Part shown: positions 1 to 48,200 of the stretch, in pieces
How the letters are laid out: each line of letters begins with the position of its first letter
Position numbering within the stretch: position 1 is the stretch's first letter
DNA from: Candidatus Woesearchaeota archaeon
GTDB lineage: Archaea; Nanobdellota; Nanobdellia; SCGC-AAA011-G17; GW2011-AR18
DNA: 64,000 nucleotides
Direction of reading: 5' to 3'
NCBI GenBank assembly: GCA_018302545.1
Contig: JAGVZM010000001.1
Span: 79,033-143,032 of the forward strand
The notes under the pieces: model-generated
What the model saw: the letters and a program-made list of their open reading frames with translations, nothing else
Database searches by the model: none
What the model was told of the DNA's origin: nothing
Made by a program: the position numbers and the translations under genes

Positions 1-311
1 CACTCTCTACAAGTGCATCTTAAAAAGTTAACAATAATATCAGCATATTTTAAATGAACAACAGGCCTAGCTAATTCTAAATAACCAAAGTGGCCCATAC
101 AATCTCTTAAATTACCACCGCAAGTTTTACATCTTAAACCAGGATCTATTACACCTAACCTAACATCCATCAAACCGCCATCTACAGGATAACCTTCTCT
201 ATCATATAATTCAGGAGTTACAACTTTAACAGAAGACATTTTCTTAATTAAGTCAGGACCTAACATACCAAATACAATCCCGCTTATCTTTTTGAAAACA
301 TTATGCTCCAT
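1..311 (-). CDS. rpoA1: RNA polymerase subunit A' (N-terminal part; gene continues beyond window start)
   Basis: Reverse-complement translation from ATG at 311-309 gives MEHNVFKKISGIVFGMLGPD...GGLMDVRLGVIDPGLRCKTCGGNLRDCMGHFGYLELARPVVH, the conserved RpoA' N-terminal zinc-finger/clamp region. Position after rpoB matches the canonical rpoH-B-A1 order. Confidence 0.85.
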   Translation of the reverse strand, partial: MEHNVFKKISGIVFGMLGPDLIKKMSSVKVVTPELYDREGYPVDGGLMDVRLGVIDPGLRCKTCGGNLRDCMGHFGYLELARPVVHLKYADIIVNFLRCTCRE

Positions 312-834
312 CGTAAATCACTACTCCTCTCTCAATTTTTAACCTTCCTGAAGAAAATAAATCATCCTCAACACATCTTAAGTTTCTTAAAGATCTTAAA
401 TGGTTTCTTAATCTATCTTCATGTTCTCTAGCTAAAGCAACAGAAGATCCCCAACATTTAATGTTAGCTCCTCTAACAAGATCATAAAGCTTATCATTAT
501 CTAATTCAACAAGCCTTGAAATAGTACTTGCCATACCATAAACTTGTGAAACAGGATAAGATACTTGTTTTTGTTCTAAACTTCCAACATTAGGTATTAC
601 AAAATCTACAACAGGACCAACAAATAGTTTATAATGATTAACATCTCCTCTTTTAAGACTTCTTAATTCTAATTGTATACCTATGCCATCTCTCGTTGCA
701 ACATATTCAAATCCCCCACCTGCAACATTTCGATGACTAGCACCTTCTATTAAATTTCCTCTTTCAGATCCAGAGCTTCTTTCAATTCTTCTAGGTTCTT
801 CAAGACTAGAATTACCAAAACCTAAAACTGTCAT
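301..834 (-). CDS. hypothetical 177-aa protein inserted between rpoB' and rpoA', R/G/S-rich N-terminus
   Basis: Long ORF in a stop-rich AT-rich genome. Its ATG overlaps the rpoB' stop (TAATG) and its TAA overlaps the rpoA' ATG (ATGGAGCATAA), suggesting translational coupling. No recognisable motif. Confidence 0.5.
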   Translation of the reverse strand: MTVLGFGNSSLEEPRRIERSSGSERGNLIEGASHRNVAGGGFEYVATRDGIGIQLELRSLKRGDVNHYKLFVGPVVDFVIPNVGSLEQKQVSYPVSQVYGMASTISRLVELDNDKLYDLVRGANIKCWGSSVALAREHEDRLRNHLRSLRNLRCVEDDLFSSGRLKIERGVVIYDGA

Positions 835-2645
835 TAATATTTCCTCCCTAATTCTAATTTTGGATAAACTCCTAAAGATTTAAGTTCATCTAATAATAAT
901 TTAAATGCATAACTCATTTCAACAACTGAAATTTTAACATTAGCACCACATTTAGTACAATACTCATTATGCTTAAAGTTATCATAGATCCCTAACATAC
1001 CGCAATTCTCACAGACAAATACATTAGTCTTATCTGAATCAAATCTTTCTTTCAAAAGTAAACTAGCACCATGTGCAACAAAGCAATCTTTCTCCATCTC
1101 TCCAATTCTTAGTCCACCACCTTGTGATCTACCCTCTATAGGCTGTCTTGTCAATAATTGAATCTTACCAGTAGCCCTTGAATGTAGTTTACCAGCAACC
1201 ATATACTTAAGTTTCAAGTAATACATATCTCCAATATAAATCTTAGCCTTAAATTGCTGTCCACTAATACCATTATACATAGTCTCTAAACCACTTTCTC
1301 TAAATCCTAATTCTTTTAGCATCTTTCTTAATTCCTTTTCAGGCATTACATCAAAACTAGTTCCATCAATATATTTTCCAGTTAAACTTCCAACTTTACC
1401 AGCTATTATTTCTATTAAATGAGAAATTGTCATTCTTGAAGGAATACCATGTGGATTAAATAAAACATCTGGAACAATACCACTAACTGTGAAAGGCATA
1501 TCTGCCAAAGGAACTAAATAACTAATAACTCCCTTCTGTCCATGTCTAGAAGCAAATTTATCTCCCACTTCTGGAATTCTTTGCTGTCTCAATCTCATTT
1601 GAACTAATCTATTACCTTCTTCACTCTCAGTAATAAGAGACATATCAACAATTCCATTATCTTTATGAGATAAGGCAATTGAACTCTCTCTTTTAACATT
1701 AGTTGCAATATTAAATTCTTCAAATTCTCCTAAAAACCTAGGCGGACTAACTCTTCCTATTACAACATCATCGCCCTTAACTTTTGCACCAGTATAAACA
1801 ACCCCATCTTCTTCTAATAACCTATAATCCTTTTCACTTCTATACCCTTTTACTTCTTTATCAGGAATACAAACCTCATCAACTAAACCGCCTTGGTATC
1901 TTAACTCTTCAGCATTAAATGGTTTAAAGTATGTAGATCTCGCAAATCCTCTATCAACAGAAGCCTTGCTAACTATTAAAGCATCTTCCATATTATAACC
2001 TTCAAAACTCATCAAAGCTATAACTACATTTTGTCCAGAAGGATGTTTTTCCCAACCATAGATATCATGCATAAATGTTTTAGTTATAGGTTTTTGTGGA
2101 TAATGCAAAACATTAACATCTGTATCCATTCTTAACAGATAATTACTAGCATATAATCCCAAAGACTGTTTCTGGATTTTACTACCCCTAATTAATCTCG
2201 AACTACTTCCAAAATTTGAATATGGAATTAATGAGGTACATAATCCTAATATTACAACAGGAGAAATCTCAAGATGTGTATGTTCTTTAGTAAGATCTTT
2301 CTCATCTAAAGCAACATAACAATTTTCTTCTTCAGCAGCATCAATATATTCTATAACTCCCTCTTTAACTAACTTATCCCATTTTAAAGTTCCATTCTTA
2401 GCTTCTTCTATATAATTATCTGTTAATTTTGATTTTCCATTTTCAACAACTATTAAAGGTCTCCTAGTCCTACCTCTGGTAATATCTAGATATACCTCAT
2501 TATAATCTTCATCCCAATAAAAATTCAATTCATAGTTTAGAACACCTTTTCTTCTCTCACTTCTAATTTGTTTAATAAACTCTTTAGCATTATCCACAGT
2601 TCCTATAAAATTTTCATTTAAAAATACATCTGTCATTTTATGCAA
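834..2645 (-). CDS. rpoB1: RNA polymerase subunit B' (C-terminal half of split RpoB)
   Basis: 603 aa. Contains the RpoB C-terminal signature GEMEKDCFVAHGASLLLKERF and zinc ribbon CENCG...CTKCG. Overlaps rpoB'' by 8 nt. Confidence 0.95.
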   Translation of the reverse strand: MHKMTDVFLNENFIGTVDNAKEFIKQIRSERRKGVLNYELNFYWDEDYNEVYLDITRGRTRRPLIVVENGKSKLTDNYIEEAKNGTLKWDKLVKEGVIEYIDAAEEENCYVALDEKDLTKEHTHLEISPVVILGLCTSLIPYSNFGSSSRLIRGSKIQKQSLGLYASNYLLRMDTDVNVLHYPQKPITKTFMHDIYGWEKHPSGQNVVIALMSFEGYNMEDALIVSKASVDRGFARSTYFKPFNAEELRYQGGLVDEVCIPDKEVKGYRSEKDYRLLEEDGVVYTGAKVKGDDVVIGRVSPPRFLGEFEEFNIATNVKRESSIALSHKDNGIVDMSLITESEEGNRLVQMRLRQQRIPEVGDKFASRHGQKGVISYLVPLADMPFTVSGIVPDVLFNPHGIPSRMTISHLIEIIAGKVGSLTGKYIDGTSFDVMPEKELRKMLKELGFRESGLETMYNGISGQQFKAKIYIGDMYYLKLKYMVAGKLHSRATGKIQLLTRQPIEGRSQGGGLRIGEMEKDCFVAHGASLLLKERFDSDKTNVFVCENCGMLGIYDNFKHNEYCTKCGANVKISVVEMSYAFKLLLDELKSLGVYPKLELGRKY

Positions 2646-4128
2646 CCACCTTTAAACCTAAGCTTTCTAAACCTTTCTTCAATTTATCTTCTTGAACATT
2701 TCCTCTTGAAACATTAGCTAAAATAGCAAAATTCTTTCTTAATCCAATTGGAGTTCCCTCTGGAGTTTCAACTGGACACAATCTTCCCCAATGAGTAGGA
2801 TGTAAGGCCCTAGCCTCAAAGTTTTCTTGAGTACTAGTCAACAATGAAGCAATCCTTTGTAAATGTGAATAAGTAGCTAAAGTATTAGACCTATCTATAT
2901 TCTGGCTAATACCCTTTCTGCCTCCAGTCCAAGTTCCAGTAGCTAAAGAGCTTTTAATGCTAGAACTTAATAACTCGTCTCTGATTATGATCTTAATACT
3001 CTGGAATTTTCCTCTTTTAACTAATCTCTGGAAGTTATATAGTATATCTTGAACTAAACTTCTTAGATTACTTCTCATCAAATCTTCTAATAAATCTCCA
3101 CTTAATTTTAATCTTTTATTCATATAATGATCTTTGTCTGGGAGAGGTAAACCTTCTTCGCTAACTTGTAAAAATCTCTTTATCATTTTACATATGTTGT
3201 ATGCTTTAATCATTCTTTGTTCTGGATTTGTTCCTAAATGAGGCAATAAGTATTTATCCAACTGTTCTCTAGCCCTTTCTAATTTAATCTCTCTTGTCTG
3301 AGCAACACCAATTTTCTTTGCTAGATATTCTAAAGCATCTTCTTCTGTTTTTAATTCTGCAGCATCATAAAGATTAATAAAAATAGAATCATAAGTTTTA
3401 TCTGGAGAGATCATCTTAACTATATCTTGATCTTTAATCATACCCAAACCCTTTAAGACTGGAACTAAAGGAATTCTCCTAAATCTTGTAAAAGTTAAAT
3501 AAAATATGCCATCTTTCATCTGTTCTACTGTATGTGGAATTCTATAACTTCCCATTTCAGAGAAAACCTTAGCAACATACTCACTAGGCCCAATATCCTT
3601 TTTTTCAATAAAGAACCTATTAGAAGCTAAATCTTCAACATTAATCATAACCCTCTCATTTCCATTAACAATAAAGTAACCACCGACTTCATCAGGATCT
3701 TCTCCCTTAGCAATTAATTCATCCCTCTTCAAACCATGTAAATGACAATATTTAGATTTTAACATAATAGGAAGTTTACCTATCATAGTAACAAAACTCT
3801 CTCTTTGTACCTCATCTACATATGCACTAACTTCTAAATATATTGGAGCAGAATAAGTTAAAGCTCTTAATCTAGCTTCACTAGGGTAAATCTCTCTTTT
3901 GCTTCCATCAGCTTCTATTATGTTTGGTTTTTCAATCCAAATCTTTTTTAATTTTATAACAAAACTCTCTACTTCTTGTGGAATAATTGTAGGATTTATA
4001 TCTCCAACTTCATCAACTAGAAGTTGTAACCTTCTTTCAATAAAATCATTAAAACTATTTATATTTGCATCTACAAAAGGATAATCCTTGAAATATGTTT
4101 TAATTAGATCTTTATAACCTTCAATCAT
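2638..4128 (-). CDS. rpoB2: RNA polymerase subunit B'' (N-terminal half of split RpoB)
   Basis: 496 aa ending ...WGRLCPVETPEGTPIGLRKNFA, conserved in the RpoB N-terminal region. Immediately downstream of rpoH. Confidence 0.95.
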   Translation of the reverse strand: MIEGYKDLIKTYFKDYPFVDANINSFNDFIERRLQLLVDEVGDINPTIIPQEVESFVIKLKKIWIEKPNIIEADGSKREIYPSEARLRALTYSAPIYLEVSAYVDEVQRESFVTMIGKLPIMLKSKYCHLHGLKRDELIAKGEDPDEVGGYFIVNGNERVMINVEDLASNRFFIEKKDIGPSEYVAKVFSEMGSYRIPHTVEQMKDGIFYLTFTRFRRIPLVPVLKGLGMIKDQDIVKMISPDKTYDSIFINLYDAAELKTEEDALEYLAKKIGVAQTREIKLERAREQLDKYLLPHLGTNPEQRMIKAYNICKMIKRFLQVSEEGLPLPDKDHYMNKRLKLSGDLLEDLMRSNLRSLVQDILYNFQRLVKRGKFQSIKIIIRDELLSSSIKSSLATGTWTGGRKGISQNIDRSNTLATYSHLQRIASLLTSTQENFEARALHPTHWGRLCPVETPEGTPIGLRKNFAILANVSRGNVQEDKLKKGLESLGLKVVA

Positions 4129-4363
4129 TTACAACCACCCTATAATAATCTGATTCTTTTGTAATATCACTCTTTCTTTTAATTAAAATAAGATCATTAA
4201 CTTTAACGTTTATTGTTTTAAGAGCAGGATCACTAATCTTTATTCTTGGCAATTGTTTTACAGAAACTTTCAATTTATCTAAGAGTTCTTTTTTTTGTTC
4301 TTCACTCAATTTCACATGTTCCGGAACCAAATAGTGTTTTACTACCTTTACCTCATCTGCCAT
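4121..4363 (-). CDS. rpoH: RNA polymerase subunit H (Rpb5 homolog)
   Basis: 80 aa. HYLVPEHVKLSEEQKKELLDKLKV...QLPRIKISDPA...YYRVVV matches the RpoH pattern. First gene of the rpoH-B-A cluster. Confidence 0.9.
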   Translation of the reverse strand: MADEVKVVKHYLVPEHVKLSEEQKKELLDKLKVSVKQLPRIKISDPALKTINVKVNDLILIKRKSDITKESDYYRVVVND

Positions 4364-4392
4364 CTTTTGAATTTGATCTCCTTAATTATATG

Positions 4393-4563
4393 TGGGCCGG
4401 ATGGGAAATACACAAATTAGTATTATACTAAACTTGTTTTGAACCCACGACCACCTGCTTTCCTCAACTTGATTAAAAGGTTCACCAATACAACTCTATT
4501 TTTGTTCAAACTTTTTCTAAAAGTTTGTATTCAGGTGCTCTATCCAAGCTGAGCTACCGGCCC
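4393..4563 (-). tRNA. tRNA with two introns (anticodon-loop intron of about 68 nt and T-loop intron of about 30 nt); identity unresolved, possibly Val/Cys-like
   Basis: Minus strand reads GGGCCGG UA GCUC AGCUUGGAUA GAGC A CCUGA ..[insert].. GCAGG UGGUC GUGGG UUCAAA[insert]U CCCAU CCGGCCC A. Acceptor is 7 bp, D-arm canonical, T-stem GUGGG/CCCAU, discriminator A. Inserts fold into hairpins. Confidence 0.5.
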
Positions 4564-4905
4564 TCTCTTAGCATAATACCCTCTAAAACCTATAAAAACC
4601 ATTGATTTTTATGTATAGCTCAATCTTAGAAGATATCATATTCTTTGACCAACACACCCCATATATAAATCTTCCGATTTCTACTCCTATTTAAAATTTT
4701 ATTTGCTCAAGAAAATAATATTAAAATATAAAATAGACGCATATAATACATATATAGATTATCAAAATAAAAAATTTCGAGATTGTGTTATCAAGAAAAT
4801 TATATCTTAAAAAAGGATTATTTCGATTTTTAACAAAGATCATTTCACCAAACAAATTAATTCATAAAGAATCTATTTAAAATAATCATTAATCTTGGTT
4901 AACAA

Positions 4906-5550
4906 TTATTCCATTAATTTACAAACCTGAAAAGGATAATAATCATATCTTGCAATTCCATTATGTCCTGTTCTTGTAGAAACTCCAAATGTATAAGGGG
5001 GAATTAAATGTCGGGTAGCATAAGCCTTAATTGATCCATCAGGCCTTTTTAAGATGATTTCCGCAGTATCATTTCCAAACACTACTTTCATAAAATACCA
5101 ACCAAGAGTATTACCCCATTCACTCTCCCCATTCCAATAACCAATATTACCACAAGTCGCATAGTTATTACAATTGTAATGATCAATATCACGCATTCTA
5201 ATATCTAAAGGAATACCATTAATAAAGATCCTACTCAATCTGTTTCCCTCTCCAGAATTATAAGAAAATCCATATTGAACTCTTTCACCAGGACGAAAGG
5301 TAGTATTAAGTGTCAAAAGAACACCACTGTTTGAAGTATTAAATTGGGATGTAGAATAAACTCCTCTAGTAGGTTCTACTGAATGATAGGAAAGCATCGG
5401 CCAAGATTCCCAATCTAAAGTTTCATTCCACAAATAGGTATTCAAAGAAGTATTTCTAAAAGAGTCATACAAATTCCAACGGCAATCTACTGCTTCTACA
5501 CTAAAAGGAATAAGCATCAAAAAAAGAAATAAAATTATTAATTTTTTCAT
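4906..5550 (-). CDS. secreted hypothetical protein (signal peptide, W/N/G-rich, possible lectin-like fold)
   Basis: N-terminal MKKLIILFLFLMLIPFSVEA signal peptide. 214 aa with no recognised catalytic motif. Confidence 0.55.
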   Translation of the reverse strand: MKKLIILFLFLMLIPFSVEAVDCRWNLYDSFRNTSLNTYLWNETLDWESWPMLSYHSVEPTRGVYSTSQFNTSNSGVLLTLNTTFRPGERVQYGFSYNSGEGNRLSRIFINGIPLDIRMRDIDHYNCNNYATCGNIGYWNGESEWGNTLGWYFMKVVFGNDTAEIILKRPDGSIKAYATRHLIPPYTFGVSTRTGHNGIARYDYYPFQVCKLME

Positions 5551-5642
5551 AGTATCAATAGGAGCATTTAGATATAAAAGTATTTCTATAAGTATGAGGG
5601 ATATTTATAAAAACAATTTAAGAAATATAATTTAGTAAAATT

Positions 5643-6533
5643 ATGGAAAAGTATATAGAATTAATAAAAGGGGTAATAAAACTTATTCAATCAATCATTA
5701 ATCCTGTTTATCTTTTAGATGATGTTCCTAATAAATACAACCCAAATAAAAAAACAATATTAAAGAACAATATAAAAAAGAAGATTAATAATGAGGAATT
5801 AAATATTGTTTCCTGGAATATTTTAAGAAATTATAATAACAAAAAAATAAAAGAATCCATTTTAAAGATAATTAAGAATGAAAACCCAGATATAATTATA
5901 ATTCAAGAAGCACCAGCATATAATAATAGCAATTTCTGGGACAATAAAATGTTTAAAAATTTTAATATTTATTATGCTCCACTTCATCAAGTAAAAAAAC
6001 AAACTAAATTTTATAATTTTGCACATTCAGGGCAATTAACCTTATCAAGATATAAATTTACAAAAACAAAAACTTATCAGTTGCCATCAGTAGCAAAACA
6101 AACATTAGGAAAAGATCACATAATAAAAAGAATAGTAATTTATACTCAACTAAAATCAAGAAGTAAAACAATAGGAATTTATAATGTTCATCTTGAAAAC
6201 ATCGCATGGCAAGATGGAAGAAGAAAACAAATAAAATATTTATTAGAAATAATAAACAAGAATAAAGACGACATAATTTTAATCGGAGGAGACTTTAATA
6301 CCTTCTTAGGATTTTTAGAAAGGGGAATATCAACCTTAGAAAAAGAAGGATTTGAAAAATTAATGAAAGGATTTAGATATTTCCCTAGGTTAGATCACTT
6401 TTTTGTTAAAGGATGTAAAGCTAAAAAATTATCATTAAAAGGTTCTGGTTCTGATCATCAACCAATAGGCATAGAAATTAAGGTAAAACGCCCTGACCGG
6501 GAGTCGAACCCGGGTCTTGGCCTTTCTTTGTAA
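5643..6533 (+). CDS. endonuclease/exonuclease/phosphatase (EEP, DNase I-like) family protein
   Basis: EEP motifs present: IVSWNI, IIIIQEA, GGDFN, SGSDHQP. The 3' end, about 45 nt, overlaps a tRNA on the opposite strand. Confidence 0.7.
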   Translation: MEKYIELIKGVIKLIQSIINPVYLLDDVPNKYNPNKKTILKNNIKKKINNEELNIVSWNILRNYNNKKIKESILKIIKNENPDIIIIQEAPAYNNSNFWDNKMFKNFNIYYAPLHQVKKQTKFYNFAHSGQLTLSRYKFTKTKTYQLPSVAKQTLGKDHIIKRIVIYTQLKSRSKTIGIYNVHLENIAWQDGRRKQIKYLLEIINKNKDDIILIGGDFNTFLGFLERGISTLEKEGFEKLMKGFRYFPRLDHFFVKGCKAKKLSLKGSGSDHQPIGIEIKVKRPDRESNPGLGLSL

Positions 6534-6611
6534 ACTCAAAAGCTTTTGATTAAACTTTTTCAAAAAGTTTACTCGACAGGGCCAGGTGATAGCCGTTACA
6601 CTACCTTTGCC
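6489..6611 (-). tRNA. tRNA-Asp (anticodon GUC) with anticodon-loop intron of about 50 nt; 5' acceptor strand not canonical, possibly a further intron (5' exon candidate at 6635..6641)
   Basis: Minus strand shows a D-arm GUAGUGUAACGGCUAUCAC. Anticodon stem is UGGCC/GGCCA flanking loop CUGUCG|intron|A. T-arm is CCGGG UUCGACU CCCGG. Acceptor 3' strand UCAGGGC plus G73 is Asp-like. Expected 5' strand GCCCUGA is absent immediately upstream; GCCCUAA lies about 23 nt further. Confidence 0.6.
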
Positions 6612-6704
6612 AAACTAATCAAAAAGATTAAAGTTTAGGGCAGTGTGTAACACACAGAGCGTTAAAAAAAGAATCAAGAGTCTATTTATAAGTTTTTTTG
6701 TTCA

Positions 6705-38361: not shown

Positions 38362-38736
38362 GGCAAGGTACTTAACTACGGATCTATATGGAGATTAAGC
38401 CTTAAAAAGCTAAATTTCAGAGATTCTGAGGAAAGTCCGCCCACTACCTGTGTCTAATGACCTAGGTCCCAGTTTGGGGGTTGCTTACTTTGTAAGTTCC
38501 AGTAATGGAAGGCAACTTTAAAGAAACGAAACGCCCTATAAAATTGGAATGATGTAGCGAAGATTTTGGTGACAAAATCAAGATAACCTGCTGACGTCTT
38601 TATAGGAAACGATGAAACGAAAGATCCCAACCAGTGCAAGTCTTCGAGACGCTTAGTAGAATGTTAAGACAAAGTATCGCGAGAACTGCAAAATAGTTTT
38701 CGTTTGGCTTTGACAAAAGGCGGCTTATTCCTTGCC
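38362..38736 (+). ncRNA. rnpB: RNase P RNA
   Basis: P4 5' strand GAGGAAAGUCCGCCCAC and P4 3' strand ACAAAAGGCGGCUUAU (consensus ACAGAA.CCGGCUUA). P1 terminal helix GGCAAGG...CCUUGCC. Confidence 0.7.
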
Positions 38737-38746
38737 TAAAATATTT

Positions 38747-45273: not shown

Positions 45274-48200
45274 CTAACTCTTTGATCATTATCATGGATT
45301 TTTAAAATATAAATATCCCAATCATCTAATTCATCTGAGGTTATACCCAACTCTTGTAGGGGAACTTCAAATCTTAAGTCTATAGGAAACTCTAAAGTCT
45401 CATTTGTGAAATTTCCTCTAAATATTACCTCAAAAAAAGGCCTTCTCCCATTAGGAACTCCTGAACTTCCAGTATTCATAGTAACAACAACACTACCACT
45501 AGAATCTGTATTTGTATTGAATGTTAAAGTGGAGGTCACACCATTTGAAAATGTATTTGTAACTGTATTTGTTTGGCCTACTTGAGAATTAACATTAGTT
45601 GTTTGAGTTTCTCCAGGCTCACCAGCTTCTTGTTGCTGATTCTGATTGTTATTGCTTCTATCTGGCGCACCAGTATTTCCTGGAGAACCTCCCCCACTAG
45701 TTCCGCTAGTACTTCCTGAACTACCAGAAGAAGGAGCTGCATCAAAAGTAACAGCAGCCCAAGGACTAAAGCTAGTTAAATCTCCTATTAATCTTACAAA
45801 TTGTGCAGTTGTATTAATCTCAAAAGTATTACTTAAACTACTCCAACCATTACTATATCTAGCAACAGTTAAATTACTCTCATTAAATGTAGAATTTAAA
45901 TCTGAACTATTATAATATATAGTTAAATTATTAACACTACCATTAATACTTAAGTTATTCATAACTAATAAATTAGAAGCTATGTCACATATCTCACTAG
46001 TGTTACTACAAGTAGTTGCTGAAACTCCTTGGTTAGTTAAATCATTAGTTGCAAAGAAACTAAGATTAGTAGCATTATTAAATGTAAAATTCAAATAATC
46101 AGTTTCTATAATATCATAATTTAATGTATTAACTATCCCTCCATTAGTTATGTTTAATACTGAAGAAGTACTTGGAAGATTAGTTACATAAACTCTATCT
46201 AAAAAAGTAACATTTGCACCATCAAAATAATATTGTATTGCTCCATTACCAGAAGCATTACTATTTGTAAAATTATTCTGACTAGATATTATCTGATAAC
46301 CATATTGAGTATTATTATTAGCAACATTAGAAGTTATATCTAAAGTTGTAGTAGTATTATCTATATATAATCCTGCAGCTAAATTAAAATTAAAAGTATT
46401 ATTTGTAACATTCATATTCAAAGAATCTTCCAAATAAAGACCATAAACATTCCCATTTAATGAAGGATTATTATATATAGAATTGTTGTTTGAAGAATAG
46501 ATTTCTATTCCTTGTCCATTAGTACCATTAAAAATAGTATTAGAATATATGTTATTATTATTTGAAGAAGTACTCATGCTTATTCCTGAAGCAGAATTAT
46601 TAAATAATGTATTAGAAGATAAATCATTATTATAACTAGATGCAAAAGTTATACCTATACCTGTGCTGTGGTTTATAGTATTAGATTGATAAAAACTATT
46701 ATTAGTATTTATTGAATAAACTCCTTGAGAATTATAAGTTAAAGTATTTGAATTAAATGTTAAATTATCTGAATCACTAATATTAAGACCATTATCTAAA
46801 TTCAAATTAAGAGTATTAGAATTCAAAGTAACATTAAAATTATCTGTGATATAAATTCCATCTTGAGTATTTGAATTTGCAGTATTTGAAGTAACAACTG
46901 TATTATTAGTTGAGTTAAGATATATTCCTGTATTTGTATTTGAATTTAGAGTATTACTAATAAAAGTAGTATTATCAGAATCATAAACATAAACACCATA
47001 AACACCAGAAGTAATAATATTATTTTCAAGATATTTATTATCTGAATTATTAATCAAAATGCCATAAGTATTATTTGTAATATTTAAGTTAGTAGAAACA
47101 TTTATCCAAGCATTTCCAAGATCACTAAAATAAATTCCAGCTGCAGTATTAAGGGTATGATTCGTAAAATTATTACTATAAATAGATAAATTTTGGGCGC
47201 TACGCTCAACATATAGGCCAATATTATCATTTCCACTAAACACATTGCCATAAATAGATCCATTTCCATCAACCCAAAGACCATTATACAAATTATTTAT
47301 TAGGCTATTATTTACAAAAGTAAAGTTATTACAATCATTATCTATAAAAATTGCATCAGGAGTTTCTAAAGCGCCATTTCCTTCAAAAGTATTATTAATT
47401 AACAAAGCATTATTAGAATCATCTAACAAAACATAAACAGAATTAAAACTAATGTTATTATTTTCAACAGTAGCATTATCACTCAAACCAACATGAAGGG
47501 GATAACCCACACTAGTTCCTGTTAGGGTGTTATTATAAATAATTAAATTATGTGTAAAAAAGTGAAAGTAAAGACCATCCCTATTACCTGTAAAAACATT
47601 TCCAGTAAAATTAGTAAAGTTCGCATCTCTTGAATAAGTTCCATAAGTATTATTTTCAACCACCAGATTATCATAAATATAATTTACAGCATTAACATCT
47701 CTAATATAAAAACCAGCTGCAGCTCCAGCAGTATGATTATAAACTGAATTAGAAAATGCACTATTATTTGTACTGTTAGTAATATTAATACCAATATTCG
47801 AATTAAGATATACTGTATTTGAAGAAATAACATTATCAGAAGATAATGCAACCAAACCAATTCCATCCCTAGTATTATTATTTAACGTATTAGAATTTAT
47901 TGTTGTATTATGAGAATTAGTTAAAAATATTCCCGTATTTCCATTAAAGGCAATAGTATTTCCAGTTAAGTTAGTTGCATTTGCATTAGTTAAATATACT
48001 CCATAAGTATTATTTCCTATGTTTAGATTATTAGTTATATTAAATTGGTTCTGATCAGAGATAGAAGATAAATAAATACCAGCAGCTAAACCTCTAGTAT
48101 GGTATGTTATATTATTACCATCAATAACATTACCTGAACCTCCTCCACTACTATAAATCCCAGCCTTACTACTATTAATAATTACATTAGAAACAATAGT

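Follow-up and report, generated by a model that had tools for sequence, protein, structure and literature searches.

A predicted tRNA-Lys(UUU) gene with three bulge-helix-bulge introns upstream of rpoH in a Woesearchaeota archaeon, and a hairpin module shared with introns of other tRNA genes

A 64-kb stretch of contig JAGVZM010000001.1 of a Candidatus Woesearchaeota archaeon (64,000 nucleotides (nt), hereafter the window) carries, directly upstream of rpoH, a minus-strand sequence in which the acceptor stem, D-arm and T-stem of a transfer RNA (tRNA) can be read, and in which the anticodon region and the T-loop are interrupted by additional sequence. Which tRNA, if any, is encoded there, how would the interruptions be removed, and why does one of them resemble an intron of another tRNA gene nearby? 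Sequence analysis and a comparison with related loci indicate that the stretch 4563..4393 is very probably a functional precursor of tRNA-Lys(UUU) with three bulge-helix-bulge (BHB) introns, in which a hairpin module would mark a related intron family. The gene runs on the minus strand from G1 (4563) to A73 (4393), its precursor is 171 nt long, and it comprises the following parts.

4532..4563, minus strand: exon 1, nt 1-30 (acceptor 5' strand, D-arm, nt 26-30); read from the sequence, boundary by the BHB rule and 73 orthologs
4481..4531, minus strand: intron 1, 51 nt, at the non-canonical site 30/31; placed by BHB geometry, minimum-free-energy (MFE) fold and orthologs
4474..4480, minus strand: exon 2, a 7-nt micro-exon, C31 plus C32-U-U34U35U36-A37 (anticodon UUU); placed by covariation of nt 31 with nt 39 and by orthologs
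4460..4473, minus strand: intron 2, 14 nt, at the canonical site 37/38; placed by BHB geometry and 53 orthologs with an intron at this site
4438..4459, minus strand: exon 3, nt 38-59 (A38, GCAGG anticodon-stem 3' strand, variable loop UGGUC, T-stem 5' strand, U54-A59); read from the sequence
4407..4437, minus strand: intron 3, 31 nt, at the T-loop site 59/60; placed by BHB geometry, fold and ortholog covariation
4393..4406, minus strand: exon 4, nt 60-73 (U60, CCCAU, CCGGCCC, discriminator A73); read from the sequence, CCA not encoded

The gene starts with GGGCCGG-UA-GCUC-AGCUUGGAUA-GAGC-A-CCUG and ends with GUGGG-UUCAAA[31 nt]U-CCCAU-CCGGCCC-A. The acceptor stem (GGGCCGG/CCGGCCC), D-arm (GCUC/GAGC) and T-stem (GUGGG/CCCAU) are thus present as given in a preliminary description of the locus, as is the T-loop intron at 59/60; the acceptor sequence together with A73 is typical of archaeal tRNA-Lys. 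The four exons (32, 7, 22 and 14 nt) join to a canonical 75-nt tRNA, GGGCCGGUAGCUCAGCUUGGAUAGAGCACCUGCCUUUUAAGCAGGUGGUCGUGGGUUCAAAUCCCAUCCGGCCCA, with the anticodon stem-loop CCUGC-CUUUUAA-GCAGG and a short variable loop (UGGUC); all four stems are perfect, and ARAGORN calls the spliced 75-mer tRNA-Lys(ttt). The preliminary description had assumed an insertion of about 68 nt in the anticodon region and non-canonical splicing there. The latter holds, and the insertion resolves into two introns that flank the micro-exon: the gap from G30 to A38 measures 72 nt, namely the 51-nt intron, the 7-nt exon and the 14-nt intron. The identity had been left unassigned; the micro-exon C31-CUUUUA37 between the two introns identifies the gene as tRNA-Lys(UUU).

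The BHB motif consists of two 3-nt bulges 4 bp apart (PMC5829648). For each of the three introns a BHB or a relaxed form of it is present, as in other archaeal tRNA introns of this class, and removal of the three restores the canonical cloverleaf. As follows from the geometry of canonical 37/38 introns, the cut falls after the second nucleotide of the bulge. Intron 1 has a complete central helix (C25ACC28/GGUG, 4/4), bulges UGA/AAC and an outer helix of 4 bp (A21GAG24/C32UUU35); its inner helix is 1 bp by a strict scan and, by eye, continues past a 1-nt bulge as AUACAA/UUGUAU. CACC/GGUG forms when the 5' portion of the precursor is folded by MFE without constraints. Intron 2 is of the relaxed hBH/BHL type, with a central helix CUUU/GAGG (4/4, two G.U pairs), bulges UAA/AAA and no inner helix; its outer helix has 1 bp in the full precursor and 7 bp once intron 1 is removed. 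Intron 3 has a central helix UUCA/UGUA (3/4), bulges AAA/UUU, the T-stem as outer helix (5 bp) and an inner helix of 6 bp with a hairpin, and the T-arm segment folds with z=-3.3.

Several points weigh against so exact a model. BHB-like geometry is common by chance in AT-rich sequence (72 strict matches in 210 nt), so that the window alone cannot fix the splice sites and the model rests on comparative data. The missing inner helix and the two G.U pairs of intron 2 are joined by an MFE fold that favours a shifted register, and the imperfect central helix of intron 3 is due to a U55.U mismatch. In the comparison itself, the parser demanded a perfect 27-31/39-43 stem and took nt 31 after intron 1, so that the pairing is partly built in.

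For the comparison, 80 loci of Candidatus Woesearchaeota/Nanoarchaeia were retrieved by their RpoB'' (60-89% identity; compared loci and contigs carry L-numbers below). In 73 loci that could be parsed, rpoH is directly preceded by a tRNA-Lys(UUU) gene, and all of these genes read CUUUUAA. The exact RpoH protein was found on five metagenome contigs, and the two that reach far enough upstream (L001, L002) carry the identical 171-nt gene. The seven closest genomes have the same three-intron layout, and the spliced genes of the closest relatives are identical to the predicted mature tRNA at 73-74 of 75 positions. Six orthologs are intronless and score 67.8-73.7 bits with the Rfam tRNA model; the syntenic genes in L016 and L066 (73.7 bits) match the predicted mature tRNA at 71 of 75 positions.

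The orthologs also support the individual splice sites. The central helix of intron 1 is fully paired (4/4) in each of its 40 carriers, a feature that the parser did not impose, and it varies in sequence (CACC/GGUG in 19 genes, CACU/GGUG in 12, CACU/AGUG in four, CAUC/GAUG in three, CAUC/GGUG in two), the changes in CACU/AGUG and CAUC/GAUG being compensatory. The nucleotide after intron 1 (nt 31) covaries with nt 39 as C-G, G-C or A-U. At 59/60 the helix covaries as well: the partner of UUCA is UGAA or UGGA, that of UUCG is CGAA or CGGA. At 37/38, CUUU faces tetramers that are rich in purines and have a final G; of the 53 genes, 40 have a 4/4 helix there and 13 a 3/4 helix. An early register was discarded on these grounds, namely with intron 1 at 31/32, exon 2 as CUUUUAAUCA, the 14-nt intron in the 3' stem strand and a stem CCUGA/UCAGG: L005, L012 and others lack UCA at that place. 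Its A31/U39 pair fails too, since the nucleotide after G30 could pair with nt 39 in 11 of 40 genes only, whereas the nucleotide before C32 always does.

As a reading of the locus, a tRNA pseudogene in decay and full of insertions is highly improbable. Standard tRNA finders do miss the locus, but the four stems are perfect after splicing, the three BHB motifs are intact, the layout and the nearly identical exons are kept in the seven closest genomes, the syntenic slot upstream of rpoH is conserved, and identical copies occur on independent metagenome contigs. Next to no credence remains for a two-intron model, in which the T-loop intron is accompanied by a single long non-canonical intron of about 68 nt in the anticodon region and the anticodon is ACA or cannot be assigned; ARAGORN does call the sequence spliced at 37/38 tRNA-Cys(aca), but this product has an A31.G39 mismatch, A32 and an A34 anticodon, and the model is contradicted by orthologs with one or neither of the anticodon-arm introns, which all read CUUUUAA, by orthologs with both, in which N31-CUUUUA always lies between them, and by the separate BHB of each intron. 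The ACA reading, which the preliminary description had itself distrusted, arose because two introns were treated as one insertion.

Without splicing in silico the gene escapes standard tools. In the raw 64-kb window ARAGORN predicted no tRNA, and Rfam at gathering thresholds returned only the archaeal RNase P RNA (38395-38739, plus strand; RF00373, 91.5 bits), which shows large insertions when compared with the model. At E<=5 Rfam added a tRNA-Asp at 28.6 bits (threshold 29) and still missed the tRNA-Lys gene. Both tools fail on the unspliced tRNA-Lys, an outcome that reflects on the tools and not on the gene. A structure-based sweep of the window for more hidden tRNAs returned the tRNA-Lys gene only.

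The precursor would be processed in two folding states. The BHBs of introns 1 and 2 are mutually exclusive, because the motif of intron 1 occupies nt 21-28 (the 3' strand of the D-stem and the top of the anticodon stem) and intron 2 needs the anticodon stem. Their removal is therefore probably ordered, with intron 2 following intron 1, and this order would keep the 7-nt micro-exon covalently attached; the T-loop intron would be removed independently of the other two. The splicing endonuclease EndA would cut each intron after the second nucleotide of the 3-nt bulge, and a ligase of the RtcB type would join the exons. CCA would be added post-transcriptionally, because the gene reads ACAUAU after A73. 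An alpha4-type EndA with an L3 loop has been reported in several DPANN lineages with many disrupted tRNAs (Kaneta et al. 2018, PMC5829648).

The 73 orthologs comprise all eight possible combinations of presence and absence of the three introns. All three are present in 14 genes; 20 have 30/31 plus 37/38, five have 37/38 plus 59/60 and four have 30/31 plus 59/60; a single intron is found at 37/38 in 14 genes, at 59/60 in eight and at 30/31 in two, and six genes are intronless. Lengths range over 12-128 nt at 30/31, 11-122 nt at 37/38 and 12-46 nt at 59/60. Parsimony on a neighbour-joining RpoB'' tree requires at least 14, 12 and 16 state changes at 30/31, 37/38 and 59/60, respectively; these are rough lower bounds because of the single-gene tree and the simple parsimony. 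The clade of the window on this tree consists of eight genomes, all with three introns. The rpoH-linked tRNA-Lys, with three fixed sites and every combination over 73 genomes, is a ready natural series of intron gain and loss, 'snapshots' of which have been requested by reviewers of the field (PMC4033280), and the locus is a clear, testable case of rapid turnover of BHB introns that does not overturn current understanding. Two loci labelled 'uncultured Methanosarcinales', L065 (5618-5728) and L082 (366-644), have the same rpoH-linked tRNA-Lys with an insertion in the D-loop, which would be a fourth intron site; the gene in L082 also has a 122-nt intron at 37/38 and a 38-nt intron at 59/60.

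The remaining question concerns intron 1, which when isolated folds into a hairpin that is shared with an intron of a tRNA-Asp gene of the window. The tRNA-Asp gene and the two copies of the shared module are as follows.

6489..6641, minus strand: tRNA-Asp(GUC) with two introns; spliced sequence called Asp(gtc) by ARAGORN, and BHB scores
6641-6637, minus strand: first exon of tRNA-Asp
6636-6606, minus strand: intron at 5/6 of tRNA-Asp, 31 nt
6605-6574, minus strand: second exon of tRNA-Asp
6573-6524, minus strand: intron at 37/38 of tRNA-Asp, 50 nt
6523-6489, minus strand: third exon of tRNA-Asp
4500..4527, minus strand: module in tRNA-Lys intron 1, CAAACUUUUAGAAAAAGUUUG (CAAACUUUU-AGA-AAAAGUUUG) plus AACAAAA; nhmmer E=7.8e-5, stem 9/9 paired
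6543..6572, minus strand: module in the tRNA-Asp 37/38 intron, UAAACUUUUUGAAAAAGUUUA (UAAACUUUU-UGA-AAAAGUUUA) plus AUCAAAA; nhmmer E=3.6e-5

Rfam aligns only 6489-6610 of the tRNA-Asp gene, because the 5/6 intron interrupts the acceptor stem; the central BHB helix of this intron (UGCC/GGCA) takes one nucleotide of the 5' leader. A 5/6 intron of tRNA-Asp is apparently also present in L005 and L013 (ending in GGCAAA/GG or GGCAAU/GG), and L006 and L010 are without it.

The module, 27-30 nt long, has the consensus AAACUUUU-loop-AAAAGUUU-NAWCAAAA. The near-identity of the two hairpins noted in the preliminary description was confirmed: tRNA-Lys intron 1 and the tRNA-Asp 37/38 intron match at 24 of 27 positions, with a local score of 39, the best non-self match in the window. 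Further copies, for which a search had been proposed there, are absent from the rest of the window (no further occurrence of the 19-mer at 0-1 mismatch) and are found in tRNA introns of related loci. When a profile of the module was run over the window and over Woesearchaeota loci totalling about 925 kb, eight matches had E<0.01, all of them in tRNA introns: tRNA-Asp 37/38 in the window, L005 (a non-seed copy), L010, L011 and L013; tRNA-Glu 37/38 in L021; tRNA-Lys 30/31 in the window; and tRNA-Lys 37/38 in L033. Weaker copies were matched in tRNA-Asp of L006 and L033 and at tRNA-Lys 59/60 of L040, and a hairpin survey with inspection by eye added tRNA-Lys 37/38 of L038 and tRNA-Lys 30/31 of L006 and L010. 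An exact-pattern scan of metagenomes gave 139 matches, of which only four are in tRNA introns, namely of Ser-GCU, Gly-UCC, Ser-CGA and Arg-CCU (the last with two tandem copies).

Altogether 19 intron copies were found, in tRNAs for Asp, Glu, Lys, Ser, Gly and Arg and at the sites 30/31, 37/38 and 59/60, all in sense orientation and with the tail 3' of the hairpin. The stem pairing is kept over these copies (closing pair U-A, C-G or G-C; position 3 A-U or G-C), as is the tail A-W-C-A-A-A-A, and the module starts 1-8 nt past the 5' splice site in all of them.

Some of these occurrences have a context of their own. The tRNA-Glu 37/38 intron of L021 is a shorter version of the tRNA-Asp intron of the window, with the same first three and last seven nucleotides; at 2922-3140 of L021 this tRNA-Glu(UUC) and a further tRNA that likely contains an intron are neighbours. 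The tRNA-Arg(CCU) with the two tandem copies is in L138 (minus strand, about 3560-3700), and its intron has 119 nt. In L115 (minus strand, about 1950-2150) the module stands behind a partial copy of the 5' end of tRNA-Asn(GUU), and the intact tRNA-Asn comes about 60 nt further downstream; the partial copy could be an integration scar or a further disrupted gene. The metagenome matches outside introns are largely unrelated AT-rich palindromes, bacterial repeats and 35-nt tandem arrays. Among the contigs concerned, L140, L128 and L118, apparently marine, have tandem arrays of the palindrome with a 34-35-nt period and up to nine copies, and several contigs, apparently from termite gut, have the palindrome between GC-rich hairpins in a sigma70-like context (TTGAAA-N17-TTTAAT); both kinds look unrelated to tRNA introns.

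What is the module? We lean, with slightly better than even confidence, towards common descent through duplication or transfer of intron sequence, as for the intron families of Thermoproteales. This reading is favoured because one short sequence recurs in several genomes, at canonical as well as non-canonical sites and within introns of various tRNAs; the similarity is significant between tRNAs of different identity and insertion site, as expected of an intron family. The module would most likely have spread by duplication or 'transposition' of introns or intron segments, with selection keeping the hairpin paired. Against common descent it has to be said that the two introns of the window are significantly similar only in the 27-30-nt core (3' remainders, p=0.62 against shuffled sequences), so that the whole-intron similarity expected for transfer of a complete intron is not seen between them; that exact pattern matches occur outside tRNAs in metagenomes; that the tRNA-Lys and tRNA-Asp copies within a genome are not significantly more alike than those between genomes (5/24 permutations were as good), which leaves concerted evolution unsupported; and that direction and mechanism of the spread are what we infer from the copies.

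Second comes the explanation that the module acts as RNA and is kept by selection, as a protein-binding or processing signal, a clamp for BHB folding or a stabilizer of the excised circular intron; this is possible, and we would not call it likely. It would account for the compensatory changes at two stem positions and the conserved single-stranded tail AWCAAAA, for the sense orientation of all 19 intron copies and the constant start close to the 5' splice site, and for the near-identity of the tRNA-Asp copy of the window with the tRNA-Glu copy of L021, in genomes with an RpoB'' identity of only 66%. It is countered by the distribution of the module, which is present in just six of the 73 tRNA-Lys genes, most orthologous introns at the same sites being without it; since 67 genes do without it, neither splicing nor the tRNA requires the module. 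In both introns of the window, moreover, the 5' arm of the hairpin has an alternative partner with which it forms the inner BHB helix. The preliminary description had proposed a processing signal or a small RNA, for which no test gave support: neither box C (RUGAUGA) nor box D (CUGA) was found in the four introns scanned, these regions have no Rfam match at E<=5, and the promoter-motif match of the tRNA-Lys copy is not significant. The conserved pairing and the strict sense orientation still leave room for a role at the RNA level.

A further reading is tentative and, in our judgement, unlikely: the module may be an autonomous intron-borne element that moves among tRNA introns, and occasionally other non-coding DNA, of Woesearchaeota and related DPANN, its sense orientation being kept because it acts as RNA. 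Such an element might stabilize the excised circular intron, serve as a handle for re-insertion of the intron RNA at BHB-forming sites, or provide an internal promoter that predisposes to gene splitting (cf. Nanoarchaeum). If true, it would be the first recognizable sequence signature of mobile BHB introns outside Thermoproteales.

A signal at the DNA level (a BRE/TATA-like promoter, where BRE is the B recognition element, a palindromic operator or a terminator), perhaps an internal promoter that enables splitting of the tRNA gene, is a good deal less credible. The promoter consensus of the window, AGAAAAGUUUAUAAAU (also written AGAAAAGTTTATAAAT), finds a counterpart in AAAAGUUUA inside the module, and with a position weight matrix (PWM) built from the 62 genes of the window the tRNA-Asp intron reaches a best score of 5.77, a marginal value at the 99.95th percentile that is about that of an average promoter here. 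The actual promoter of tRNA-Asp scores 7.62, however, and the 3.47 of the tRNA-Lys intron (99.55th percentile) would be reached by chance in about one of four 50-nt stretches. In Woesearchaeota loci, three copies outside introns precede genes by 8-54 nt, and on the 3.9-kb contig L123 a copy (193-218, plus strand) lies 20 nt upstream of an rps4-like gene, a second one (1416-1441, minus strand) being in the intron of a tRNA-Gly(UCC). On the other hand, no other copy occurs in the 64-kb window despite its 62 promoters, and no co-oriented gene directly follows tRNA-Asp. The impression, gained by eye, that intergenic copies form co-oriented terminator or promoter cassettes was given up, as non-tRNA metagenome matches show no orientation bias to the flanking genes (23/27 upstream, 31/28 downstream).

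Chance similarity of AT-rich, low-complexity sequence, to which the low-complexity pattern and the many unrelated metagenome matches might point, is rejected by a score of 39 against a background of 13.8 +/- 3.2 (12,788 tiles, both strands) that only 1 in 2000 shuffles reached, by the position of both copies in tRNA introns at a nearly equal offset from the 5' splice site, and by the confinement of all E<0.01 profile matches in 925 kb to tRNA introns.

The surroundings of the tRNA-Lys gene link it to the genes for RNA polymerase. The flanking features are as follows.

4121..4363, minus strand: rpoH (RNA polymerase subunit H/Rpb5 C-terminal domain); Pfam PF01191 Rpb5_C, E=3.3e-23
4590..4605, minus strand: candidate BRE/TATA promoter of tRNA-Lys, UCAAUGGUUUUUAUAG; from the promoter motif of the window, tentative, with a PWM score of only 1.76

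The rpoH gene starts 29 nt past the tRNA-Lys gene (spacer 4364-4392) and is followed by rpoB'' and rpoB' on the same strand. For about half of the 62 genes of the window, the promoter consensus begins at -36/-37 relative to the ATG, and this regular spacing implies that the mRNAs would be mostly leaderless. By the -37 spacing rule, transcription of tRNA-Lys would begin some 5 nt ahead of G1 if driven from the weak TATA-like site UUUUUAUAG (4598-4590). The PWM of the window motif gave no good promoter between tRNA-Lys and rpoH, and co-transcription is therefore plausible: the tRNA-Lys is probably on the same transcript as rpoH and rpoB, and tRNAs may be transcribed along with the RNA polymerase operon. 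In many relatives (L005-L084, around position 5560-5790) a tRNA-Asp lies immediately upstream of tRNA-Lys, and the order Asp-Lys-rpoH-rpoB looks ancestral on this pattern; in the window, two genes lie between the tRNA genes, at 4906-5550 (minus strand) and 5643-6533 (plus strand, an Exo_endo_phos protein). Exactly between rpoB' and rpoA', and co-oriented with them, is an open reading frame for 177 amino acids (301-834, minus strand) that has no Pfam match, is rich in G, R, S and V unlike its neighbours, and has been predicted as a gene on the independent contig L001 too. At 45351-45439 (minus strand) a sub-threshold Rfam match to the C/D box small nucleolar RNA snoR64 (26.9 bits, E=0.85) may represent an archaeal C/D box small RNA (sRNA).

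With these results, routine tools are seen to miss the only tRNA at a conserved locus, one that decodes the commonest codon of an AT-rich genome, and 'missing' tRNAs in genome bins of DPANN may often be multi-intron genes like this tRNA-Lys. The same suspicion has been voiced by Kaneta et al. 2018, in a survey that included one Woesearchaeota genome and pointed to unfinished tRNA sets as well as to more tRNA disruption among DPANN lineages (PMC5829648). The module occurs in introns of at least six tRNA identities, and related intron families therefore exist outside Thermoproteales; it also provides a concrete sequence for testing how BHB introns spread. Neither this locus series nor the module was found to be described in the literature searched, the coverage of which was incomplete.

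Genes of this type are already known, and the module amounts at most to a new variety of the intron families described before. In Euryarchaeota, the intron of tRNA-Trp holds a C/D box sRNA and is likewise an intron-borne RNA element in an archaeal pre-tRNA; the module differs in that it has no C/D boxes or snoRNA match and is found in many tRNAs. The split tRNAs of Nanoarchaeum equitans include those for Lys and Glu. They come from a related lineage (GTDB class Nanoarchaeia) and likewise depend on a BHB at the 37/38 junction, as relayed in PMC4033280 (Randau et al. 2005); the tRNA-Lys gene of the window, in contrast, is contiguous, and an internal promoter in the intron is at most weakly indicated. 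In archaea generally, up to three introns per tRNA gene and non-canonical sites including 59/60 are known, and a 59/60 intron has been cleaved in vitro by a DPANN endonuclease (PMC3239211). This was in ARMAN-2 (Micrarchaeota, DPANN; Fujishima et al. 2011, PMC3239211), which resembles the present case in having a 59/60 T-loop intron with a strict or relaxed BHB, at a site that its own endonuclease was shown to cleave in vitro; it differs in that the enzyme is of the epsilon2 type, in that the tRNAs are those for Cys and Pro, and in that no shared module was described. The multi-intron tRNA genes of Thermoproteales (Sugahara et al. 2007/2008), as far as summarized in PMC4033280 and PMC3239211, are alike in having up to three BHB introns, mixed sites and relaxed forms, and in being missed by standard finders; according to the same summaries they were found with searches of the SPLITS type. 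The present gene belongs instead to a DPANN/Woesearchaeota lineage with a very AT-rich, small genome, and the same gene can be traced over 73 genomes. Similar introns in different tRNAs of Thermoproteales have also been attributed to 'transposition' families (Fujishima et al. 2010, as excerpted in PMC4090602 and PMC4033280); compared with these accounts, only the 27-30-nt core is shared here and not the whole introns, the module spans genomes with an RpoB'' identity of only 60-66%, and similar palindromes occur outside tRNAs too.

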